Part shown: positions 11,765 to 18,385 of the stretch, one piece after another
Numbering within the stretch: position 1 is the stretch's first letter
Layout of the letters: the number at the start of each line of letters is the position of its first letter
Origin: an uncultured Bacilli bacterium
Lineage (GTDB): Bacteria; Bacillota_I; Bacilli_A; RF39; UBA660
Direction: 5' to 3'
Length of the DNA stretch: 56,601 bases
Assembly: GCA_947589495.1 (NCBI GenBank)
Contig: CANQAK010000005.1
Span: 1-56,601 of the forward strand
The notes under the pieces: model-generated
What the model was told of the DNA's origin: nothing
Seen by the model: only the letters and a program-made list of their open reading frames with translations
The model's database searches: none
Program-made: the position numbers and the translations under genes

Positions 11765-12388
11765 CTAATTATTTCTGTTAATAATATTTTTTACTTTATT
11801 TTTTATTCTTTGAATTGTATTATCAATTTGTTTACTATTTTTATTTAATATTTTTGCTATTTCTTGATAATTTAAACCTCTTATTTTTAAAACAAAAACT
11901 TCATATTCATTTTTGGTAAGTCTACTTTTTATTAAACTAATTAATTCTTTATAATCTTCTTCTTCTGTAATATTTTTAAGTGGATCATATTCACCTTCAT
12001 CACTTATTATATCCATAAGTCTTGAACCATTTTCAACATAAATAAAATCTAATGAATACATATCTTGAAGATTTCTATATTTATCTCTACTATATTTTCT
12101 TATAATACCAAATATTCTTCTTTCAATACAAACAGTTATAAATGTTGGTAATGATGCATTTCTATCATCTCTATAATTATGTAATGCATCACTAAAACCT
12201 ACACTACATTCACTATAAATTTCTTGATAATCAACATTTAAATTATTTAATTGAGAAGAATGTTTTTTTATTAAAATATTAATTATAAACTTATATTTAG
12301 CATAAAGTAAATTTTTAGCATCTTCATCATTTTCTCTATATAACATTAATAATTCATTATCATTAGTATCAACTGTATAATCTATCAT
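11765..12388 (-). CDS. sigH: RNA polymerase sigma factor, SigH/ComX-like
   Basis: Region 2 (ASLPTFITVCIERRI), region 4 YQEIAKILNKNSKQIDNTIQRIKNKV; follows rlmB as in Bacillota. Confidence 0.8.
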   Translation of the reverse strand: MIDYTVDTNDNELLMLYRENDEDAKNLLYAKYKFIINILIKKHSSQLNNLNVDYQEIYSECSVGFSDALHNYRDDRNASLPTFITVCIERRIFGIIRKYSRDKYRNLQDMYSLDFIYVENGSRLMDIISDEGEYDPLKNITEEEDYKELISLIKSRLTKNEYEVFVLKIRGLNYQEIAKILNKNSKQIDNTIQRIKNKVKNIINRNN

Positions 12389-13047
12389 TTCTTAACCATC
12401 CCATATAAAAGTATACCAGCAGAAGTACTTGCATTTAAGCTATTAATCTTTCCATACATTGGAATACTTATAACAAAATCACTATTATCTAAAACTAATT
12501 TACTTATTCCCTTACCTTCATTACCAATTACTAAAACTTTTTTTGATGCATAATCTATTTGTTGATAATTTTCTCCAATCATATCAGCAGCATATACAAA
12601 ATAACCATCTTTTTTTAATGATTTTAATGCATTAACAATATTATTAACTCTAATTATTTTTACATGTTCAATTGCTCCTGCACTAGTTTTAACAACAGTA
12701 TCTGTAATTCTTACACTTCGATCTTTAGGAATAATAATACTTTTTACTCCTACACATTCACAAGTTCTAATAATTGCTCCAAAATTATGAGGATCTTCTA
12801 AATGATCTAGTACTACTACTAAATTCCCCTCTACATCTTGTAATGAATAATATTCATAATCATCTATATCTATAACAATACCTTGATGATTACCATTAAC
12901 CATTTTTTCTAAAACTTTTTTATCAACAAAATTATATTTTAAATTATTTTTCCCTAAATAATTTATATATTCTTTACTACTAATATAGATTTTTCTAATT
13001 TTATTTTTGTCAATTTCCGTTAAGATGTTTTTTCCATATACTAGCAT
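12385..13047 (-). CDS. rlmB: 23S rRNA Gm2251 2'-O-methyltransferase (SPOUT)
   Basis: NHQG, LDHLEDPHNFGAIIRT, IGNEGKG, IPMYGKINSLNAS; likely start MLVYG at 13047. Confidence 0.92.
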   Translation of the reverse strand: MLVYGKNILTEIDKNKIRKIYISSKEYINYLGKNNLKYNFVDKKVLEKMVNGNHQGIVIDIDDYEYYSLQDVEGNLVVVLDHLEDPHNFGAIIRTCECVGVKSIIIPKDRSVRITDTVVKTSAGAIEHVKIIRVNNIVNALKSLKKDGYFVYAADMIGENYQQIDYASKKVLVIGNEGKGISKLVLDNSDFVISIPMYGKINSLNASTSAGILLYGMVKK

Positions 13048-13141: not shown

Positions 13142-14062
13142 ATGTTTAAATATAGTTTAGATAATAAAAGATATCACACTCTTAATTATTTTTATAGAAC
13201 AAAATTTAATAGTAAAGTATTTAAAGTACCTATTGATGCCCATTTTAGTTGCCCAAATAAAATAAATAATCATGGTTGTATTTATTGTTATGAAAATAGT
13301 AAAGCTAATATTATTGATAGTAAGGCTTCTATTAAAGAACAATTTTTAAATAATATTAAAGTATTAGAAAAAAAATGGCCAAATAGTTTATATATACCTT
13401 ACTTTCAAGCTGGTACTAATACTTATGCTCCACTTAGTACTTTAAAAAATATTTATGAAGAGTTATTAAATGAACCAAAAGTTGTTGGCCTAGCTATTGC
13501 TACTAGACCTGATACTTTATCTAATGAAATACTTGATTATTTAGAAACATTAAATAAAAAAACATTTTTAACAATTGAGCTAGGCTTACAATCAAGTAAT
13601 AACAATACTTTAAAATTTATTAAAAGAGGACATGATGTTAATACATTTATTAATGCTGTAAAAGAACTTCATAAAAGACATATTTTTGTAGTAGCCCATA
13701 TTATAAATGGGCTACCCTATGAAACAGAAAAAGATATGCTAAATACTATTAAATTATTAAATAATTTAAATATTGATGGTATTAAAATACATATGTTATA
13801 TGTTTCAAAAAATACAGAATTAGCTTCTATATATGAAAAAGAAAAATTTCATATATTAACTAAAGAAGAATATATAGATATTGTTATTAAACAATTAGAA
13901 TTATTAAAACCAGAGGTAGTTATTGAAAGAATTACTGGTGATCCTATCAAAGAAGAATTAATTACTCCAACTTGGTTATTAAAAAAATTTTGTGTATTAA
14001 ATGATATTGATAAAGAAATGGTAAAAAGAAATACCGAACAAGGTATTTCATCTTCCAAATAA
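13142..14062 (+). CDS. Radical SAM protein, YhcC/YtqA (TIGR01212-like) family
   Basis: FSCPN...GCIYC, YFQAGTNTYA, ATRPD, IELGLQS, RGHD, GIKIH, RITGD. Confidence 0.9.
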   Translation: MFKYSLDNKRYHTLNYFYRTKFNSKVFKVPIDAHFSCPNKINNHGCIYCYENSKANIIDSKASIKEQFLNNIKVLEKKWPNSLYIPYFQAGTNTYAPLSTLKNIYEELLNEPKVVGLAIATRPDTLSNEILDYLETLNKKTFLTIELGLQSSNNNTLKFIKRGHDVNTFINAVKELHKRHIFVVAHIINGLPYETEKDMLNTIKLLNNLNIDGIKIHMLYVSKNTELASIYEKEKFHILTKEEYIDIVIKQLELLKPEVVIERITGDPIKEELITPTWLLKKFCVLNDIDKEMVKRNTEQGISSSK

Positions 14063-14093
14063 TTGTTAATAACTTCTTAGTTTTCAACAAAAT

Positions 14094-14156
14094 AAAAGGG
14101 AGGTCGTTACTTCTCCCAGGGTTAAGTTAAGTCTATTTTTACGTCTTCGTTGACGA
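14094..14156. repeat. 63-bp conserved element, copy 1 (3' of cassette-1 surface gene)
   Basis: 61/63 identical to 15799-15861 by manual alignment; contains CGTC-N6-GACG mini-hairpin and GGGAG-N10-CTCCC hairpin followed by U-tract on minus strand. Confidence 0.92.
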
Positions 14157-14168
14157 TTTTTTTATTTG

Positions 14169-15422
14169 TTATGAAACGATGTAAAATGGAGTTCCTATTT
14201 CTCCTGTACCTTCGAGTACCACATCGGACTTCAGATAGAAGACCGGGCGGATAGCATATCCAAGGCTTAAATTGCTGTAGTCAACGGCTCCACTTGGGCC
14301 CACCCACCACGCAGAGAAGGCAGCAGTCCCGGCAGCGTTGTTTCGACCCATACGAGTCATGGTCCATTCGAATCGCTCATCTGTAGATGTTTCTCCTCCA
14401 TTATTACTCATATGTATCCAACTTGTTTTACATTGTGCAGCATCTTGCCTACAACTCGATTCTGATCCTGTTCCACTTAATGCATATGCATAATCATGTA
14501 TATACATTAATCCTATTGGTTTTGATTCTGTCTTTTTTTCCCATTTTTTATCTGTTACTTCTTTTCCAGTTATTGGATCAATATATTTTGTATTTGCTTG
14601 ACCTGTTTCTATTTTATATACTGTCTCTGTTGGTATATTTGAATTTATATAACCATAACTTATATCTCCATATAACCATTGTTGTGGTTCTATTTTATTT
14701 TGTATACTACTATCTAATGTATTATAGTATGTATTATTTAATGTGCTAAATATTGTACTTTCTGGCCACTCTTTGTTTGTTGAATAATTATCCCACCATT
14801 GATGTGTACTTTCATATCTTGTTTGTTTTATTACTTTGATATTTCCTTCTTCTGTTATTCCTATGATTCGATACATGTTTTCATCTGTTCCACTACTAGT
14901 TGCATTACATCCATTTAGTCCCACTTCATTCAAACATATATAATTTTTTACTTTATTTCCTTTTAATTCATCTACACCTTGGTAACGGTACATTCCTCCA
15001 ATTGGTTCATCACTTAAACTTTCATCATTTGTTCTTGAATCTATTAATTCTTGTGGATTCTCTGGTGTTTTTTTATCAAAATATAAATAACAGTATGATG
15101 TTTTATTTGTACTTACTGTTATTTTATCACTTTCATATGTTAAACTATTTTCTATTTTTTCTCCATTATTATCCATACATCCTGACTTTTCTGTATTTAA
15201 CTTATAATCATTTCCTGGAAATATTGATTGTTCTTTATATTCTCCATCTTCCCCTTTTACCATAATAGCAAACATATTATTTTTTTCAACATCTTTTAAG
15301 CTAACTGTATCCAATGTTGCATTTACCGATTTATTCTTGCTTATAAAAACTATACTTGTTGTTAATAATAATATTAGAATTAATAATGTAATAGTTATTT
15401 TCTTATTCATATTTTTATCCAT
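14169..15422 (-). CDS. Membrane-anchored surface protein with one C-terminal CLec-like domain; putative DGR target
   Basis: N-terminal hydrophobic anchor (start may be 15410), 2-Cys adaptor GCMD...SYCYLYFD, domain ending EWTMTR...W.V...AIRPVFYL...GTG...PFYI. Confidence 0.8.
   Translation of the reverse strand: MDKNMNKKITITLLILILLLTTSIVFISKNKSVNATLDTVSLKDVEKNNMFAIMVKGEDGEYKEQSIFPGNDYKLNTEKSGCMDNNGEKIENSLTYESDKITVSTNKTSYCYLYFDKKTPENPQELIDSRTNDESLSDEPIGGMYRYQGVDELKGNKVKNYICLNEVGLNGCNATSSGTDENMYRIIGITEEGNIKVIKQTRYESTHQWWDNYSTNKEWPESTIFSTLNNTYYNTLDSSIQNKIEPQQWLYGDISYGYINSNIPTETVYKIETGQANTKYIDPITGKEVTDKKWEKKTESKPIGLMYIHDYAYALSGTGSESSCRQDAAQCKTSWIHMSNNGGETSTDERFEWTMTRMGRNNAAGTAAFSAWWVGPSGAVDYSNLSLGYAIRPVFYLKSDVVLEGTGEIGTPFYIVS
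14232..14369 (-). other. DGR-type variable region VR-A
   Basis: About 54% GC over 14221-14380 (manual count) in an AT-rich gene; aligns with VR-B1/VR-B2 plus one extra codon. Confidence 0.72.
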
Positions 15423-15433
15423 CCTATATGTCC

Positions 15434-15510
15434 ATAGGTAATATTTACCTATACAACAATTACATTATAGGCAAATTATGCCTAAAAGTCAATAGGTAAA
15501 ATATAACTAT
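15434..15510. promoter_or_regulatory. Three operator palindromes ATAGGYAA-N3-(TTACCTAT-like) in cassette-1 divergent control region
   Basis: 15434-15452 ATAGGTAAtatTTACCTAT (perfect), 15467-15485 ATAGGCAAattATGCCTAA, 15492-15510 ATAGGTAAaatATAACTAT. Confidence 0.8.
15464..15492 (-). promoter_or_regulatory. Sigma-A promoter of cassette-1 surface gene
   Basis: TTGACT (15492-15487), 17 bp, TATAAT (15469-15464). Confidence 0.8.
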
Positions 15511-15534
15511 ATTAAAATGGTGTTGGTGTTATAA

Positions 15535-15762
15535 ATGAATAGATTAAAAGAGATTCGAGAAGACAAAGATTTATTTCAAAAAGATATAGCAGAATATCTA
15601 AATGTTGATCAATCTAATTACAGTAAATATGAATTAGAAAAAATTAACATTCCCATTTCTATACTTATAAAATTAGCAGATTTTTATAATACAAGTGTTG
15701 ATTATTTAGTATATAGAACTGATGATAGAAAACCTTATCCTAAAAGTAAATTATCTAAATGA
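15535..15762 (+). CDS. Small XRE-family HTH regulator (cassette 1)
   Basis: RLKEIRED..QKDIAEYLNVDQSNYSKYE..LADFYNTSVDYL. Confidence 0.93.
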   Translation: MNRLKEIREDKDLFQKDIAEYLNVDQSNYSKYELEKINIPISILIKLADFYNTSVDYLVYRTDDRKPYPKSKLSK

Positions 15763-15766
15763 GATT

Positions 15767-15790
15767 CTACCAAATATGGTAGTTTTTTTT
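15767..15790 (+). terminator. Intrinsic terminator of XRE-1
   Basis: CTACCA-AATA-TGGTAG followed by T8. Confidence 0.8.
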
Positions 15791-15798
15791 ACAAACAA

Positions 15799-15861
15799 AA
15801 AAGGGAGGTCGTTACTTCTCCCAGGGTTAAGTTAAATCTATTTTAACGTCTTCGTTGACGA
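15799..15861. repeat. 63-bp conserved element, copy 2 (3' of cassette-2 surface gene)
   Basis: 61/63 identical to 14094-14156; same position relative to the stop codon. Confidence 0.92.
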
Positions 15862-15880: not shown

Positions 15881-18028
15881 TCAATTTGCTATGTAGAATG
15901 GTTCTAACGTTGTTCCTTTTCCTTTTAATTTAATATCATTTGTTAGATAGAAGACGGGACGAACAGCAACCTTACGTTCTAAGGTGCTGGTGTCGACACG
16001 ACCGTCTACATACACAAACCACGCATCGAAGAAATTAAGGGAGTCATTACGCCGACCCACACGCGACATGGTCCATTCATAATCTGATGTATTTCCATTT
16101 TGGTACATATGCATCCAGCCACTATCTCTACATTTATTATATGAATCTGCTCCTTTAGAATTATGGCAACCATCTTGGTTTGCTTGATAATAATAATCAT
16201 GTAAGTACATTAATCCTATATTGGCTTCTTTTGTATTTGTCCATTTCTCTCCTGTTACTTCTTTCTTATCAGATGTTGTTGGTCCATAGTATTTGGTATT
16301 CATGTCTCCACTTTCTACTTGATATATTTGATTTGCTGTTAATGTTCCTACAAAATTATAATGCATATCTCCATAATACCAGTTCCATTTTTGTATTTTT
16401 CCTTGTATTTCACTATCTAGTGTTTTATAAAATGTTTCATTTAAAGTTGTATATACATCACTTCGAGGCCATTCTGGACATCCACTACTTCCACAATAAG
16501 AATCATCATAACGTCCGCTCCATGCATATGTACTTGTTCCGTTGTTCGTAAATTTTGTTTGCTTTATTACTTTGATATTTCCTTCTGGAGTTATTCCTAT
16601 GATTCGGTACATATTGTCATCATAACCATTATTTTTTGCATCACATCCATTTGTTCCTACTTCTTTTAAGCATATATAGTTTTTTACTTTATTTTCTTTT
16701 AATTCATCTGCTCCTTGGTAACGGTACATTCCTCCAACTAAAGTTTTACTTAACGCATCTGTAGTATCTTCTAATCTTAATGTATTTTCTTGATCTGTTG
16801 GTATTACTTCTGTTAATGTATATGGATCTTCTACTGTTCCACTTCCATATAATGTTATATTACTTTTTAAATAGAATACTGGGCGAAGCGCAATAGCACC
16901 TACCAAGGAGCCGTTGGTGATTTCACCGTCCGTATCCACATACCATCTCCAGAAGAGAACAGAGTTATAATTACCCCGACCAACACGCGTCATGGTCTGT
17001 TCTCTTGCCTCATTTCCAGATGTTGTTATTCCATTATTTTTTATGTGCATCCAACCATTATCTTTACATTTTTGATACGAATCTTTTCCTTTTGCATAAT
17101 GACAACCATCTTCGTTTGCTTGATAATAGTAATCATGTAAATATATTAATCCTATATTAGCTTTTTCATTCATTTGAGTCCAGCTTTCATTTGTTACTTC
17201 TGCTGTATTACTTGATTTATGTCCATAGTATTTTGTATTTTTTGCTCCTGTTTCTACTTGGTATATTTCATTTGCACTTAATGTCCCTACAAAATCATAA
17301 TGCATATCTCCATACCACCAGTTTTGTGGTTCTATTTTATTTTTTATTTCTTCATTTAATGAATTGTAAAATGTGGTATTTAATGTTGTATATAATTCAC
17401 TTTCTGGCCATTCTGGACAACCATCTGTTCCACATGTTGAATCGCTATCATTTGAGTTCCATGCATAATTTCCTATACTTGTTTGTTTCATGACTTTTAT
17501 ATTTCCATTCTCTGTGATTCCTATAATCCTATACATTTCATCACTTTGACTTGAACATTTTCCTTCGAAACATAAATAGTTATCTACATCTGGTCCTTGG
17601 TAACGATACATACCTCCTACAGGATTAATACTTAATCCACTGCTCTTTTTTAATTGTTCTATTAATTCTTTTGCATTATTCTTATCAAAATATAAATAAC
17701 AATATGATGTTTTATTTGTAGTAAGAGTTACTTTGTTACTATCTGAATCATATGTTAAGCTGTTTTCTATTTTTTCTCCATTATTATCCATACATCCAGA
17801 TAATTTTTCATTATAGAAATAATCTTCAGGCCATTCATTAGAGTTACTTACTTCATATTCTCCACTATCATTTTGAAGCATTATTGCAAACATATTATTT
17901 TTTTCTACTTCTTTTAAACTAACTGTATCTAATGTTGCATTTACCGATTTATTTTTTCTTATAAAAACTATACTTGTTGTTAATATTAATAATAAAATTA
18001 TTGTTGTAATAAATATTTTCTTTTTCAT
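15881..18028 (-). CDS. Membrane-anchored surface protein with two tandem CLec-like domains; putative DGR target
   Basis: Start MKKKIF at 18028 (the ORF-track start lies inside the promoter); N-terminus nearly identical to the 14169 gene; two GGMYRYQG...RPVFYL domains. Confidence 0.8.
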   Translation of the reverse strand: MKKKIFITTIILLLILTTSIVFIRKNKSVNATLDTVSLKEVEKNNMFAIMLQNDSGEYEVSNSNEWPEDYFYNEKLSGCMDNNGEKIENSLTYDSDSNKVTLTTNKTSYCYLYFDKNNAKELIEQLKKSSGLSINPVGGMYRYQGPDVDNYLCFEGKCSSQSDEMYRIIGITENGNIKVMKQTSIGNYAWNSNDSDSTCGTDGCPEWPESELYTTLNTTFYNSLNEEIKNKIEPQNWWYGDMHYDFVGTLSANEIYQVETGAKNTKYYGHKSSNTAEVTNESWTQMNEKANIGLIYLHDYYYQANEDGCHYAKGKDSYQKCKDNGWMHIKNNGITTSGNEAREQTMTRVGRGNYNSVLFWRWYVDTDGEITNGSLVGAIALRPVFYLKSNITLYGSGTVEDPYTLTEVIPTDQENTLRLEDTTDALSKTLVGGMYRYQGADELKENKVKNYICLKEVGTNGCDAKNNGYDDNMYRIIGITPEGNIKVIKQTKFTNNGTSTYAWSGRYDDSYCGSSGCPEWPRSDVYTTLNETFYKTLDSEIQGKIQKWNWYYGDMHYNFVGTLTANQIYQVESGDMNTKYYGPTTSDKKEVTGEKWTNTKEANIGLMYLHDYYYQANQDGCHNSKGADSYNKCRDSGWMHMYQNGNTSDYEWTMSRVGRRNDSLNFFDAWFVYVDGRVDTSTLERKVAVRPVFYLTNDIKLKGKGTTLEPFYIAN
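15944..16078 (-). other. DGR-type variable region VR-B2 (C-terminal)
   Basis: GC-rich 45-codon block GAA TGG ACC ATG...CGT CCC GTC TTC TAT CTA; NNC/NNT variable codons. Confidence 0.78.
16868..17002 (-). other. DGR-type variable region VR-B1 (internal domain)
   Basis: GC-rich 45-codon block colinear with VR-B2; differences concentrated at codon positions 1-2. Confidence 0.75.
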
Positions 18029-18048
18029 ATTTGACTTTCCAATCTTAT

Positions 18049-18125
18049 ATACAATAGATATTTTGTATCTTAAGTTGATTATACAAAACTTATTTTGTAT
18101 TGTCAATACAAAGCTTTAGTTGTAT
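18049..18125. promoter_or_regulatory. Three operator palindromes ATACAA-N8-TTGTAT in cassette-2 divergent control region
   Basis: 18049-18068, 18081-18100 (ATACAAAActtaTTTTGTAT), 18106-18125; all three have exact ATACAA/TTGTAT arms. Confidence 0.85.
18078..18106 (-). promoter_or_regulatory. Sigma-A promoter of cassette-2 surface gene
   Basis: Perfect TTGACA (18106-18101), 17 bp, TATAAT (18083-18078). Confidence 0.85.
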
Positions 18126-18151
18126 GAGAATTTTTGTTAAAGGTGATATTT

Positions 18152-18385
18152 ATGAATATTAATAGAATAAAAGAAATAAGAGAAGATAGAGATCTATATC
18201 AAAAAGATGTTGCTAATGCTTTAAAAATAAAACAACAACAATACTCAGAGTATGAAATAGGTAAAAGGCTAATTCCAATTAATTATTTAAGTGATTTAGC
18301 TGATTTTTATGATGTATCAATAGATTACTTATTAGGTAAAACTGATGAAAGAAAGCCTTATCCAAAAAGTAAATTAATGAAATAA
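18152..18385 (+). CDS. Small XRE-family HTH regulator (cassette 2), paralog of 15535
   Basis: RBS AAGGTG; RIKEIRED..QKDVANALKIKQQQYSEYE..LADFYDVSIDYL..RKPYPKSKL. Confidence 0.93.
   Translation: MNINRIKEIREDRDLYQKDVANALKIKQQQYSEYEIGKRLIPINYLSDLADFYDVSIDYLLGKTDERKPYPKSKLMK

Follow-up and report, generated by a model that had tools for sequence, protein, structure and literature searches.

A candidate 3'-end small RNA with an anti-RBS seed and a putative exonuclease-blocking 5' motif in an uncultured Bacilli bacterium

RNAs derived from mRNA ends, such as Vibrio OppZ, S. aureus RsaC and Streptomyces s-SodF, pair with the ribosome-binding site (RBS) of their own operon or of related genes (available part of PMC8406224). 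According to the same portion of that source, a 5' protective structure is expected on 3'-UTR small RNAs in bacteria with RNase J, and this nuclease is thought to keep processed 3'-UTR small RNAs rare in Gram-positives. A viral xrRNA stops RNase J1 in vitro (available part of PMC5760640). For hairpins that mark DGR targets, the published criteria are a GC-rich stem of 7-10 bp, a 4-nt GRNA loop and a distance of 4-34 bp from the VR end. The literature surveyed, mostly titles and abstract openings with few subscription journals, contained no paper on the element described here or on a native bacterial xrRNA.

The window analysed is a stretch of 56,601 nt from an uncultured Bacilli bacterium with a genome of 1.11 Mb (G000), in which a repeated element follows two paralogous genes, A and B. 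We lean, with somewhat more conviction than doubt, towards a small RNA from an mRNA 3' end that carries an anti-RBS seed against four paralogues and a 5' motif that would stop RNase J. Like OppZ, RsaC and s-SodF, such an RNA would pair with ribosome-binding sites of related genes. Compared with the processed 3'-UTR small RNAs, as far as the available part of the source describes them, it would be capped by a proposed 23-nt mini-pseudoknot rather than a stem-loop of 20-25 nt, it occurs in up to 32 copies per genome with exchangeable seeds, and its putative targets form a DGR-type paralogue family.

Anatomy and distribution of the repeat

The two copies in the window (14094-14156 and 15799-15861) agree at 61 of 63 aligned positions, and the coding tails of genes A and B share only 45 of their last 78 nucleotides, which bears out the contrast between repeat and flanks drawn in the earlier note. 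Over their first 39 nt, the eight gene-linked copies of the genome are on average 97% identical, whereas the coding tails reach 70% (28 pairs). The minus-strand layout had also been read correctly as CGTC-AACGAA-GACG, a spacer, TTAACTTAAC, GGGAG-N10-CTCCC and a U-tract; the distance from the VR, put at 75-85, is slightly longer at 87 and 94 nt in the window.

The element has a three-part build (Table 1). Part 1 comprises a 4-bp stem, an AACGAA loop and an A-rich tail ending in AUAG, and is proposed to act as a 5' exonuclease block. Part 3 fits an intrinsic terminator in its predicted fold, with a GC stem and a U-tract 3' of a gene; a consensus terminator scanner, which allows loops of up to 8 nt, misses it. 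Covariance models of Rfam 15 gave best E-values at the element of 0.86 (9.5 kb searched) and 4.6 (116 nt), far below gathering scores. They gave no match for one further copy (L083), nothing near the gathering score for another (L113), and only rRNA and tRNA matches in 20 metagenome loci. Half of a pistol ribozyme was dropped as it had no Rfam match. An independent promoter at a copy lacking a gene was likewise rejected: the site matches at 10 of 12 positions, but four such sites were found against 2.2 expected.

Table 1. Coordinates of the element copies, host genes and neighbouring features in the window, and locations of the candidate seed targets elsewhere in the genome
Feature	Position	Strand	Remarks
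Copy A, part 1	14133..14155	-	23-nt hairpin plus tail; loop-tail covariation; mini-pseudoknot predicted
Copy A, part 2	14118..14129	-	12-nt seed; complementary to SD-to-start region of four paralogues
Copy A, part 3	14094..14117	-	predicted intrinsic terminator; 5-bp stem, 10-nt loop, U-tract
Host gene A	14169..15422	-	413-417 aa; hydrophobic N-terminus; weakly matches DUF6273; a single VR-like region, terminal
Gene A VR-like region	14243..14356	-	compared with the TR of contig C7: 24 non-A mismatches, 3-nt gap
XRE/HTH_3 gene	15535..15762	+	divergent from gene A, convergent on copy B
Copy B, part 1	15838..15860	-	hairpin plus tail
Copy B, part 2	15823..15834	-	12-nt anti-RBS seed
Copy B, part 3	15799..15822	-	predicted terminator (fold); loop conserved
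Host gene B	15881..18106	-	two-module paralogue; 715 aa from ATG near 18028; terminal and internal VR-like regions
Gene B terminal VR-like region	15955..16068	-	mismatches to the TR: 26 at A positions, 13 non-A
Gene B internal VR-like region	16879..16992	-	no element 3' of VR
XRE/HTH_3 gene	18134..18385	+	divergent from gene B
Candidate seed targets, four paralogues	C2:79295, C2:28078, C3:34628, C35:9626	+, -, -, +	SD-to-start region

The product of gene A is likely a membrane-anchored surface protein, judging from its sequence, and its VR-like region would be either old or derived from another template. The regions are of genuine DGR type: an RT, an Avd-like gene and a TR lie on contig C7, and the cognate target VR there differs from the TR at 15 A positions and no others. 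This arrangement of one RT-Avd-TR core with dispersed VR genes is shared with remote-target DGRs that have DUF6273/C-type-lectin-like targets. The genome differs from them in its 56 VR-like regions, most of which have many non-A differences. The sequencing material consisted of four DNA runs from one rabbit-gut sample, and the placement of contigs from it was dominated by paralogues. One 319-nt read contig (depth 4) covers the gene A VR with 12 differences, and those listed all lie outside the VR; we do not treat this as evidence.

The claim that the element lies downstream of each terminal VR holds inside the window, but genome-wide it follows only 8 of 44 terminal VRs, 87-113 nt from the VR end. 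Similarly, the expectation that all copies lie 3' of VR genes is correct for the eight gene-linked copies of this genome and fails elsewhere, where copies also follow non-VR genes, tRNAs and IS ends. One further copy in the genome is solo, with seed and terminator and no gene. In the genus, the core is present in 21 of 42 genomes and a reversed control pattern in none of the 42, so the element is not a product of chance. It starts at a median of 5 nt past the stop codon, and 89 of 103 copies lie within 40 nt of it, although such counts overstate independence because copies and paralogues are related. Across the class, the exact pattern was found in 4 of 401 genomes, all of its own family, in assemblies where rRNA operons and repeats are often missing.

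Covariation and contexts of the 5' motif

One loop-tail base pair of part 1 is C-G in 46 copies and U-A in 33, with no exception among the 79 copies retrieved by a search that left the last base free. Among metagenome and viral matches, the pairing is kept in 49 of 57 intergenic copies (Fisher p 3.5e-8) and in 9 of 18 copies inside ORFs (p 1.0). A Watson-Crick variant, type 2, with loop AGG and tail CCU, occupies the same position in 10-24 copies in each of five genomes of the genus scan, none of which has the type 1 motif. The first hairpin is CGUC/GACG; its outer pair occurs as C-G, U-A, A-U, G-C and U-G, and some copies are mismatched. A search for stem variants in the window genome and the fetched loci returned just three rows (a U-G closing variant, an AT-rich match and a copy that breaks the covariation), hence no new stem class. 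The second hairpin stands a few nucleotides away in the G023 copies of the U-A class and in the copies at DGR operons.

The motif recurs in 16S-23S spacers, where it follows tRNA-Ala, in tRNA clusters and ABC operons, 5' of binding-protein genes and of scaffold/capsid genes in phage operons, at IS110 and IS6-like ends, and in RNA-virus-like contigs adjoining coat genes (S-domain). In one such contig (L352), a type-1-like and an exact type 2 copy are arranged in tandem 3' of the coat ORF. BLAST against annotated phages gave chance-level matches only. A relaxed viral pattern matched 83 loci, mostly by chance or as palindromes; a few of its rows with Watson-Crick loop-tail pairing were left out of the counts. 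Every context of the motif is upstream of RNA worth keeping. The host genome of the window has two RNase J genes; the organisms that carry the rRNA-spacer and phage copies have a best 16S match of 85%, and because they are unplaced the RNase J link does not cover them.

Complementarity of the seed to paralogue ribosome-binding sites

The 12-nt complement of the seed occurs outside the element four times in 1.11 Mb, both strands included, each time at the start of a family gene. Of the 902 start regions of the genome, the remaining 898 match the seed over at most 8 contiguous nt, and only 2 of 20,000 shuffled linkers matched a family start region over 12 nt. The loop of part 3 is complementary as well: its 8-mer (14103-14110) matches a second site in all four leaders, about 62-65 nt 5' of the same start codons, and element and leader fold jointly at -39.6 kcal/mol compared with -11.1 and -4.6 separately. 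The earlier note rightly argued that the conservation of spacer and loop exceeds what a terminator requires; both are complementary to paralogue mRNA leaders. As a group, the 42 family genes of this genome are no better targets than others (median -4.05 vs -5.5).

Seed and site co-vary between genomes as compensatory changes, judged from sequence: CUUAACCCU is matched by AGGGUUAAG in G000 and G017, ACAAUCCU by AGGAUUGU in G024, and UCUUUCUUCCU by AGGAAGAAAGA in the U-A class of G023. With seed windows and start codons set by our own rules, median cognate energies are -18.1 in the G023 U-A class and -10.4 in G024, and the G024 seed reaches only -3.8 to -5.3 on the sites of other groups. The copy at the end of the DGR operon has a different seed, and in four of four genomes the leader of the same operon contains an 11-12 nt complement to it.

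The pattern is uneven. Several genes of G017 and of the G023 C-G class pair weakly (-0.6 to -8.2). Two genomes do not fit the seed model: in G028 the seed scores -2.3 to -6.9 on its own three genes and no family target was found, and in G008 its complement is no richer than in controls. In type 2 genomes, the only long exact complement of the seed is the antisense strand of the element itself, and one of the 20 shorter candidate sites fetched is a family start. Pairing there is imperfect, at -11.8 to -15.7 in seven of eight genes, and the seeds also bind sites of other groups. With regard to the features of 3'-UTR small RNAs, the position between stop codon and predicted terminator fits, and the RBS-complementary seed fits outside G028 and G008.

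Given this three-part build, a small RNA for silencing sister genes is likely, and the best reading is a 3'-UTR regulatory RNA that would repress its paralogues; the idea of a small 3' RNA, one of several in the earlier note, is supported. We infer transcription through the element, termination at its hairpin, stalling of RNase J, pairing in the cell and repression. In an active host gene the mRNA would be cut and then degraded 5' to 3'; RNase J would halt at the 5' motif, which by analogy likely protects the element, and an RNA of about 60 nt would survive. Its seed would cover the SD-to-AUG region of a paralogue mRNA and block translation, and the terminator loop would pair with the second leader site, brought near by an 8-bp leader hairpin. 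In the window genome this would constitute a between-class circuit, in which eight producer genes and the solo copy act on four element-free targets. In G017, G023, G024 and the type 2 genomes, family-wide negative feedback would be expected because the host genes carry the site themselves.

A broader reading, which we put forward tentatively and with more reserve than confidence, takes part 1 as a bacterial exoribonuclease-resistant RNA, a 23-nt mini-pseudoknot akin to coremin that serves bacteria, phages and IS as a portable RNase J cap and has been fused in this genus to exchangeable anti-RBS seeds. Such a cap would protect pre-23S rRNA and tRNA clusters as well as IS read-through RNA and downstream genes with high expression. 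Through the exchangeable seeds, dozens of DGR-diversified surface proteins, and the DGR operon too, would come under a post-transcriptional circuit of exclusion or budgeting.

Alternative readings and comparison with known systems

The seed may act within an intact mRNA, either in trans between mRNAs or in cis by 5'-3' looping, with the 5' motif as a protein-binding or Nus-antitermination (boxB-like) helper; we consider this unlikely. Thirty distinct motif copies, in rRNA spacers, IS ends and one phage, are followed after 1-22 nt by what we take to be a boxA-like sequence, the host has NusB, and no Rho was found over the cut-off in its genome. However, the window motif lies 16 nt 5' of a terminator, where antitermination would be self-defeating, and many copies in tRNA clusters, ABC operons and RNA-virus-like contigs have no boxA-like neighbour. 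Looping in cis is impossible for the perfect match in the window genome because producers and targets are different genes. Precedents exist in Listeria hly-prsA2 and S. aureus icaR, where pairing between 3' and 5' UTRs needs no release of the Hfq type (available part of PMC8406224); unlike these, as described there, the element would pair across the SD-to-start region of several paralogues and also exists as a solo copy.

That a terminator block was simply copied with duplicated genes and gene-converted, its complementarity stemming from C/U-rich 3' ends, seems to us improbable. Other subfamilies of the 44 genes do have their own common 3' flanks, two unrelated 12-nt matches to family start regions arise outside the seed among the 44 3' flanks (70 nt), which shows that a pyrimidine-rich 3' end may match an SD region through its composition alone, and G028 and G008 are without clear targets. 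Such copying nevertheless leaves unexplained why loop and tail covary in IS, phage, tRNA and viral settings alike, as well as the paired seed/RBS changes in three lineages, the second loop site and the DGR-operon match.

A site acting at the DNA level, as inverted repeats or an att-like hairpin for mobilising or shuffling cassettes, we rate as improbable too. In several genomes, seed and RBS do form an inverted repeat around one gene, the motif occurs at IS ends, and the 3' site of a radical SAM orthologue carries inserts in 5 of 28 loci (28 of 30 parsed). The recombination site suggested earlier finds no support at this locus, where the element is present only with a surface-gene or DGR-operon insert (4 of 28 loci) and absent from the empty sites (L453, L464). 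Moreover, the copies remain homologous past the seed and across the terminator, which means that the repeat does not mark where the unit ends, the two halves lie on different genes in the window genome, and the motif is also found in RNA-virus-like contigs and rRNA spacers.

A DGR target-recognition hairpin licensing remote VRs, also proposed earlier, is the least credible and in large part refuted: although the eight gene copies follow VR genes, a variant ends the DGR operon, non-A mismatch medians are alike with and without the element (21 vs 19.5, p 0.52) and the split of fresh VRs is not significant (0/8 with vs 9/36 without, p 0.17), the element is missing from the cognate target and all nine TR-closest terminal VRs, departs from the published DGR geometry (4-bp and 5-bp stems in its DNA fold, 6- and 10-nt loops, 87-113 nt from the VR) and follows non-VR genes, and type 1 is absent from the operon end of 13 of the 17 RT loci examined, one of which has type 2. 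With the BPP-1 hairpin/cruciform, as given in the available part of PMC3240598, it shares a location 3' of a VR and differs in stem, loop, distance and distribution. A relic of a DGR cassette end was rejected because the element occurs far beyond DGRs.

For the preferred small RNA, a close structural parallel is coremin (xrRNA-C), which occurs in RNA viruses including beny- and cucumoviruses (PMC6546385, PMC10520033, PMC10321173). Both have the 4-bp CGUC/GACG stem, within the 3-4 bp of the xrRNA-C first hairpin, a loop ending in CGAA, and a U-U-A-A-A spacer of 9-10 nt followed by a second hairpin of free sequence, and both are located behind stop codons, within 3' UTRs or in intergenic stretches. 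A loop-spacer pseudoknot with Watson-Crick variants is proposed for coremin and, in agreement with the observed covariation, predicted for the element. The element departs from both sequence criteria, with loop AAYGAA instead of YGAD or YGNNAD and spacer end AUAR instead of CUAC (A16-A20 essential). Its second hairpin may be at least 16 nt off instead of directly following the spacer, and it resides in bacterial chromosomes, IS ends and phages, whereas coremin is viral; its resistance is predicted by analogy. The motif combines two features that are inactive in coremin: an AACGAA loop in the BNYVV context is not Xrn1-resistant (PMC10520033), and the spacer change C18A abolishes resistance (PMC6546385). 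We infer that its own tail would compensate for them.

If true, a 23-nt RNase J block would explain how one lineage crossed the barrier to processed 3'-UTR small RNAs, would extend xrRNAs from viruses to bacteria and could serve as a minimal part for stabilising mRNA. The seed would offer a possible way to ration or switch more than 40 variable surface proteins in a 1.1-Mb gut bacterium, and perhaps to limit its own DGR. For coremin, whose fold is unsolved, the natural C-G, U-A and Watson-Crick variants of the element supply the covariation that had been missing.

Anatomy and distribution of the motif

The two copies of the element in the window lie on the minus strand, each immediately following the stop codon of one of two paralogous genes, and share 61 of 63 bases, as the earlier note had observed; the neighbouring coding ends have diverged, as it also saw, with 45 of the last 78 coding bases shared. 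Both paralogues have a hydrophobic N-terminus, a weak DUF6273 match and a divergent XRE gene. In the host assembly (G000; 1.11 Mb, 25% GC) the element core occurs ten times: eight copies stand behind terminal variable regions (VRs), one stands alone and one ends a reverse transcriptase (RT) operon. Rfam scans gave no match for the element or for the L083 and L113 copies of its motif, and records sharing the motif are uncultured Bacilli, mostly from animal gut.

The first part of the element is a 23-nt motif (type 1, with an AAYGAA loop) present in 21 of 42 genus genomes in up to 32 copies (reversed-control pattern, 0 matches), at a median distance of 5 nt 3' of the stop codon. The third base of the loop covaries with the final base of the tail, with 46 C-G and 33 U-A states among the 79 copies retrieved with the last tail base left free; 46 further C-G copies, being pattern-selected, were excluded. 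In matches from metagenomes, viruses and three more genomes, searched with both covarying positions free, the rule is kept in 49 of 57 intergenic copies versus 9 of 18 copies that lie within ORFs. Surface-gene 3' UTRs, IS110 ends, IS6-like ends, ABC operons and tRNA clusters each include copies of both states, which means that the loop-tail switch took place several times. Five other genomes carry, in the same position, 10-24 copies of a variant (type 2) whose loop and tail can pair Watson-Crick, and a sixth has a single diverged copy. We infer that the motif is a compact H-type pseudoknot working as RNA.

Other copies were found in 16S-23S spacers directly 3' of tRNA-Ala, between the tRNAs of bacterial and phage clusters, between ABC permease and binding-protein genes, upstream of a phage scaffold and capsid gene pair, and at IS110 and IS6-like element ends, antisense to the transposase. 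In two RNA-virus-like contigs the motif also adjoins S-domain coat genes, and one of the two has a tandem pair in which one copy is type-1-like and the other exactly type 2; the copies in such contigs are candidate new viral xrRNAs. The thread common to these contexts is a downstream RNA worth keeping. A boxA-like sequence comes after the motif in thirty copies. At the IS ends, motif and boxA-like sequence point into the insertion element and deleted forms provide the opposite end with a new RBS, an arrangement that resembles an inbuilt means of avoiding polar effects.

Coordinates of the features discussed (C, contigs of G000; L, loci fetched from genomes, metagenomes, phages and viral contigs)
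Feature	Location	Remarks
Element copies	window 14094-14156, 15799-15861
DGR core	C7:10300-14950 (L001, L256)	target gene, TR (~12373-12490), accessory ORF, Avd-like gene, RT, 95-aa ORF; sole core in genome; motif overlaps the 95-aa ORF at its final codons and stop
DGR-operon seed/leader site	C7:12712 and 14911-14921; L155, L061, L040	leader site 220 nt after TR
Four seed targets	C2:79295+, C2:28078-, C3:34628-, C35:9626+	among most TR-like terminal VRs; 10, 6, 7, 6 non-A mismatches
Stand-alone copy	C4:37181-37242 (L249 1461-1522, minus)	194 nt behind another copy; weak promoter-like match; different terminator loop, with a 10-nt match from its 3' part to the RBS of an element-bearing C18 gene and a 12-nt match to a non-family start region
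Element-bearing gene in two ORFs	C1:84119-85364 (minus)	probably split by a frameshift; ORFs of 142 and 275 aa
3' flanks sharing another subfamily's terminator	C2:26873, C17:12545, C18:216, C35:450, C37:4642	5' arm resembles complement of largest gene class's RBS, one bulge; three flanks run into poly-G promoters
G023 U-A class	L139-L154	on visual inspection, post-motif hairpin loop complementary to stretch ~21 nt into same family's coding sequence
Site after radical SAM gene	window 14062-14094; L436-L465	occupied in 5/28 genomes by a convergent surface gene or a DGR operon
RNA-virus-like contigs	L352 1345-1530; L113 2742-2833; L372 ~1500-1570	motif or variants before/after coat genes, between polymerase and capsid ORFs
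IS110 and IS6-like elements	L187, L188, L193, L196, L199, L202, L203, L223, L228; L182, L231, L243; L083, L103 (IS loci)	several of the IS110 elements lie just 3' of RBS-like sequence
Related phage contigs	L280, L282, L284, L287, L290, L292	A-U-closed variant in conserved non-coding stretch; no tRNA called
Phage motif-like hairpin	L380 ~1501-1560	directly upstream of what resembles a hammerhead ribozyme core

Complementarity to paralogue leaders

Directly after the motif, a 12-nt seed is the exact complement of the region from Shine-Dalgarno sequence to start codon in four element-free paralogues, and this complement occurs nowhere else in G000 outside the element. By duplex energy the four targets rank 2-5 among 902 start regions, rank 1 being a scattered duplex at an unrelated gene; contiguous matches in all other start regions reach at most 8 bases, and 2 of 20,000 in a shuffle control equalled the seed's match to a family start. 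Seeds vary between genomes, with the RBS changing in step in the genus relatives G017 and G024 and in both classes of G023. Pairing is weak in some G017 and G023 genes and imperfect and broad for type-2 seeds; no clear seed target was found in the relatives G028 and G008. The 42 family genes taken together show no enrichment as seed targets, and unrelated 12-nt matches occur in 2 of 44 3' flanks. The seed-by-site energy matrix covers only groups with at least two complete genes (8 groups, 59 genes), under our own seed-window and start-codon rules.

The copy ending the operon of the diversity-generating retroelement (DGR) carries a seed distinct from the others, and in all four genomes the leader of that operon contains an 11-12 nt complement to it. 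Judged from sequence, this 3' module is possibly a self-limiting DGR control, or may have a role in handling the template repeat (TR) RNA. The U-A class of G023 may represent a second two-site design.

Part 3 is a predicted terminator with a 5-bp stem, a 10-nt loop and a U-tract. The earlier note had argued that a terminator alone would not need a conserved loop, and the loop is accounted for by 8 bases that match a second site, which precedes the start codon of each of the four targets by ~62-65 nt; since the four leaders are related, these matches count as one or two events. A leader hairpin lies between this site and the seed site.

Most likely, host mRNA decay would halt at the motif and leave a ~60-nt RNA that would cover the RBS of paralogues, between classes in G000 and as family-wide feedback in other genomes. 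The anatomy, covariation and complementarity are observed; the model predicts expression, termination, stalling of the nuclease and repression. The host encodes NusB and two RNase J enzymes, and no Rho scored above the cut-off. The main rival retains the seed, with the motif helping the intact mRNA through protein binding or antitermination.

Relation to the DGR and to gene insertion

The DGR in G000 is real, yet it does not explain the element. There are 56 VR-like regions (44 terminal, 12 internal) in ~44 genes. The cognate target, which differs from the TR at 15 A and 0 non-A positions, lacks the element, as do all nine TR-closest terminal VRs. Such VRs make up 0 of 8 element-bearing versus 9 of 36 element-free terminal VRs, which is not significant (p 0.17), and the medians of non-A mismatches are alike, so the element is unrelated, rather than opposed, to recent homing. 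Compared with the four seed targets, element-bearing genes have older terminal VRs, with 13-29 non-A mismatches to the TR. The expectation that every copy lies 3' of a VR-bearing gene holds for eight of ten copies in G000 and fails in relatives, where some copies come after genes that lack a VR-type end. Nor is the proposed DGR hairpin supported: a 4-bp stem, a 6-nt loop and a distance of 87-113 nt miss the published pattern, given in excerpts of PMC3240598 as 7-10 bp, GRNA and 4-34 bp.

The suggestion of a recombination site finds no support 3' of the radical SAM orthologue: there the element occurs solely alongside an inserted gene (4 of 28 loci) and is missing from two empty sites. Other neighbours at this site are varied, which marks it as an insertion hotspot.

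Comparison with known RNAs

3'-UTR sRNAs and xrRNAs are both already known kinds. According to excerpts of a review (PMC8406224), RNase J restricts processed 3'-UTR sRNAs and protective 5' structures are required; a viral xrRNA stops RNase J1 in vitro (excerpts of PMC5760640). Our literature search, of incomplete coverage and mostly at title and abstract level, returned no native bacterial xrRNA and no account of the element. The closest described RNA, in excerpted sources (PMC10520033, PMC6546385, PMC10321173), is the Xrn1-resistant coremin motif; however, ours departs from both its loop and spacer rules and falls outside that class. An AACGAA loop on the viral coremin spacer is inactive (excerpts of PMC10520033). 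That spacer offers no partner for the loop C, whereas the tail of the bacterial motif supplies a covarying G, which may restore the fold.
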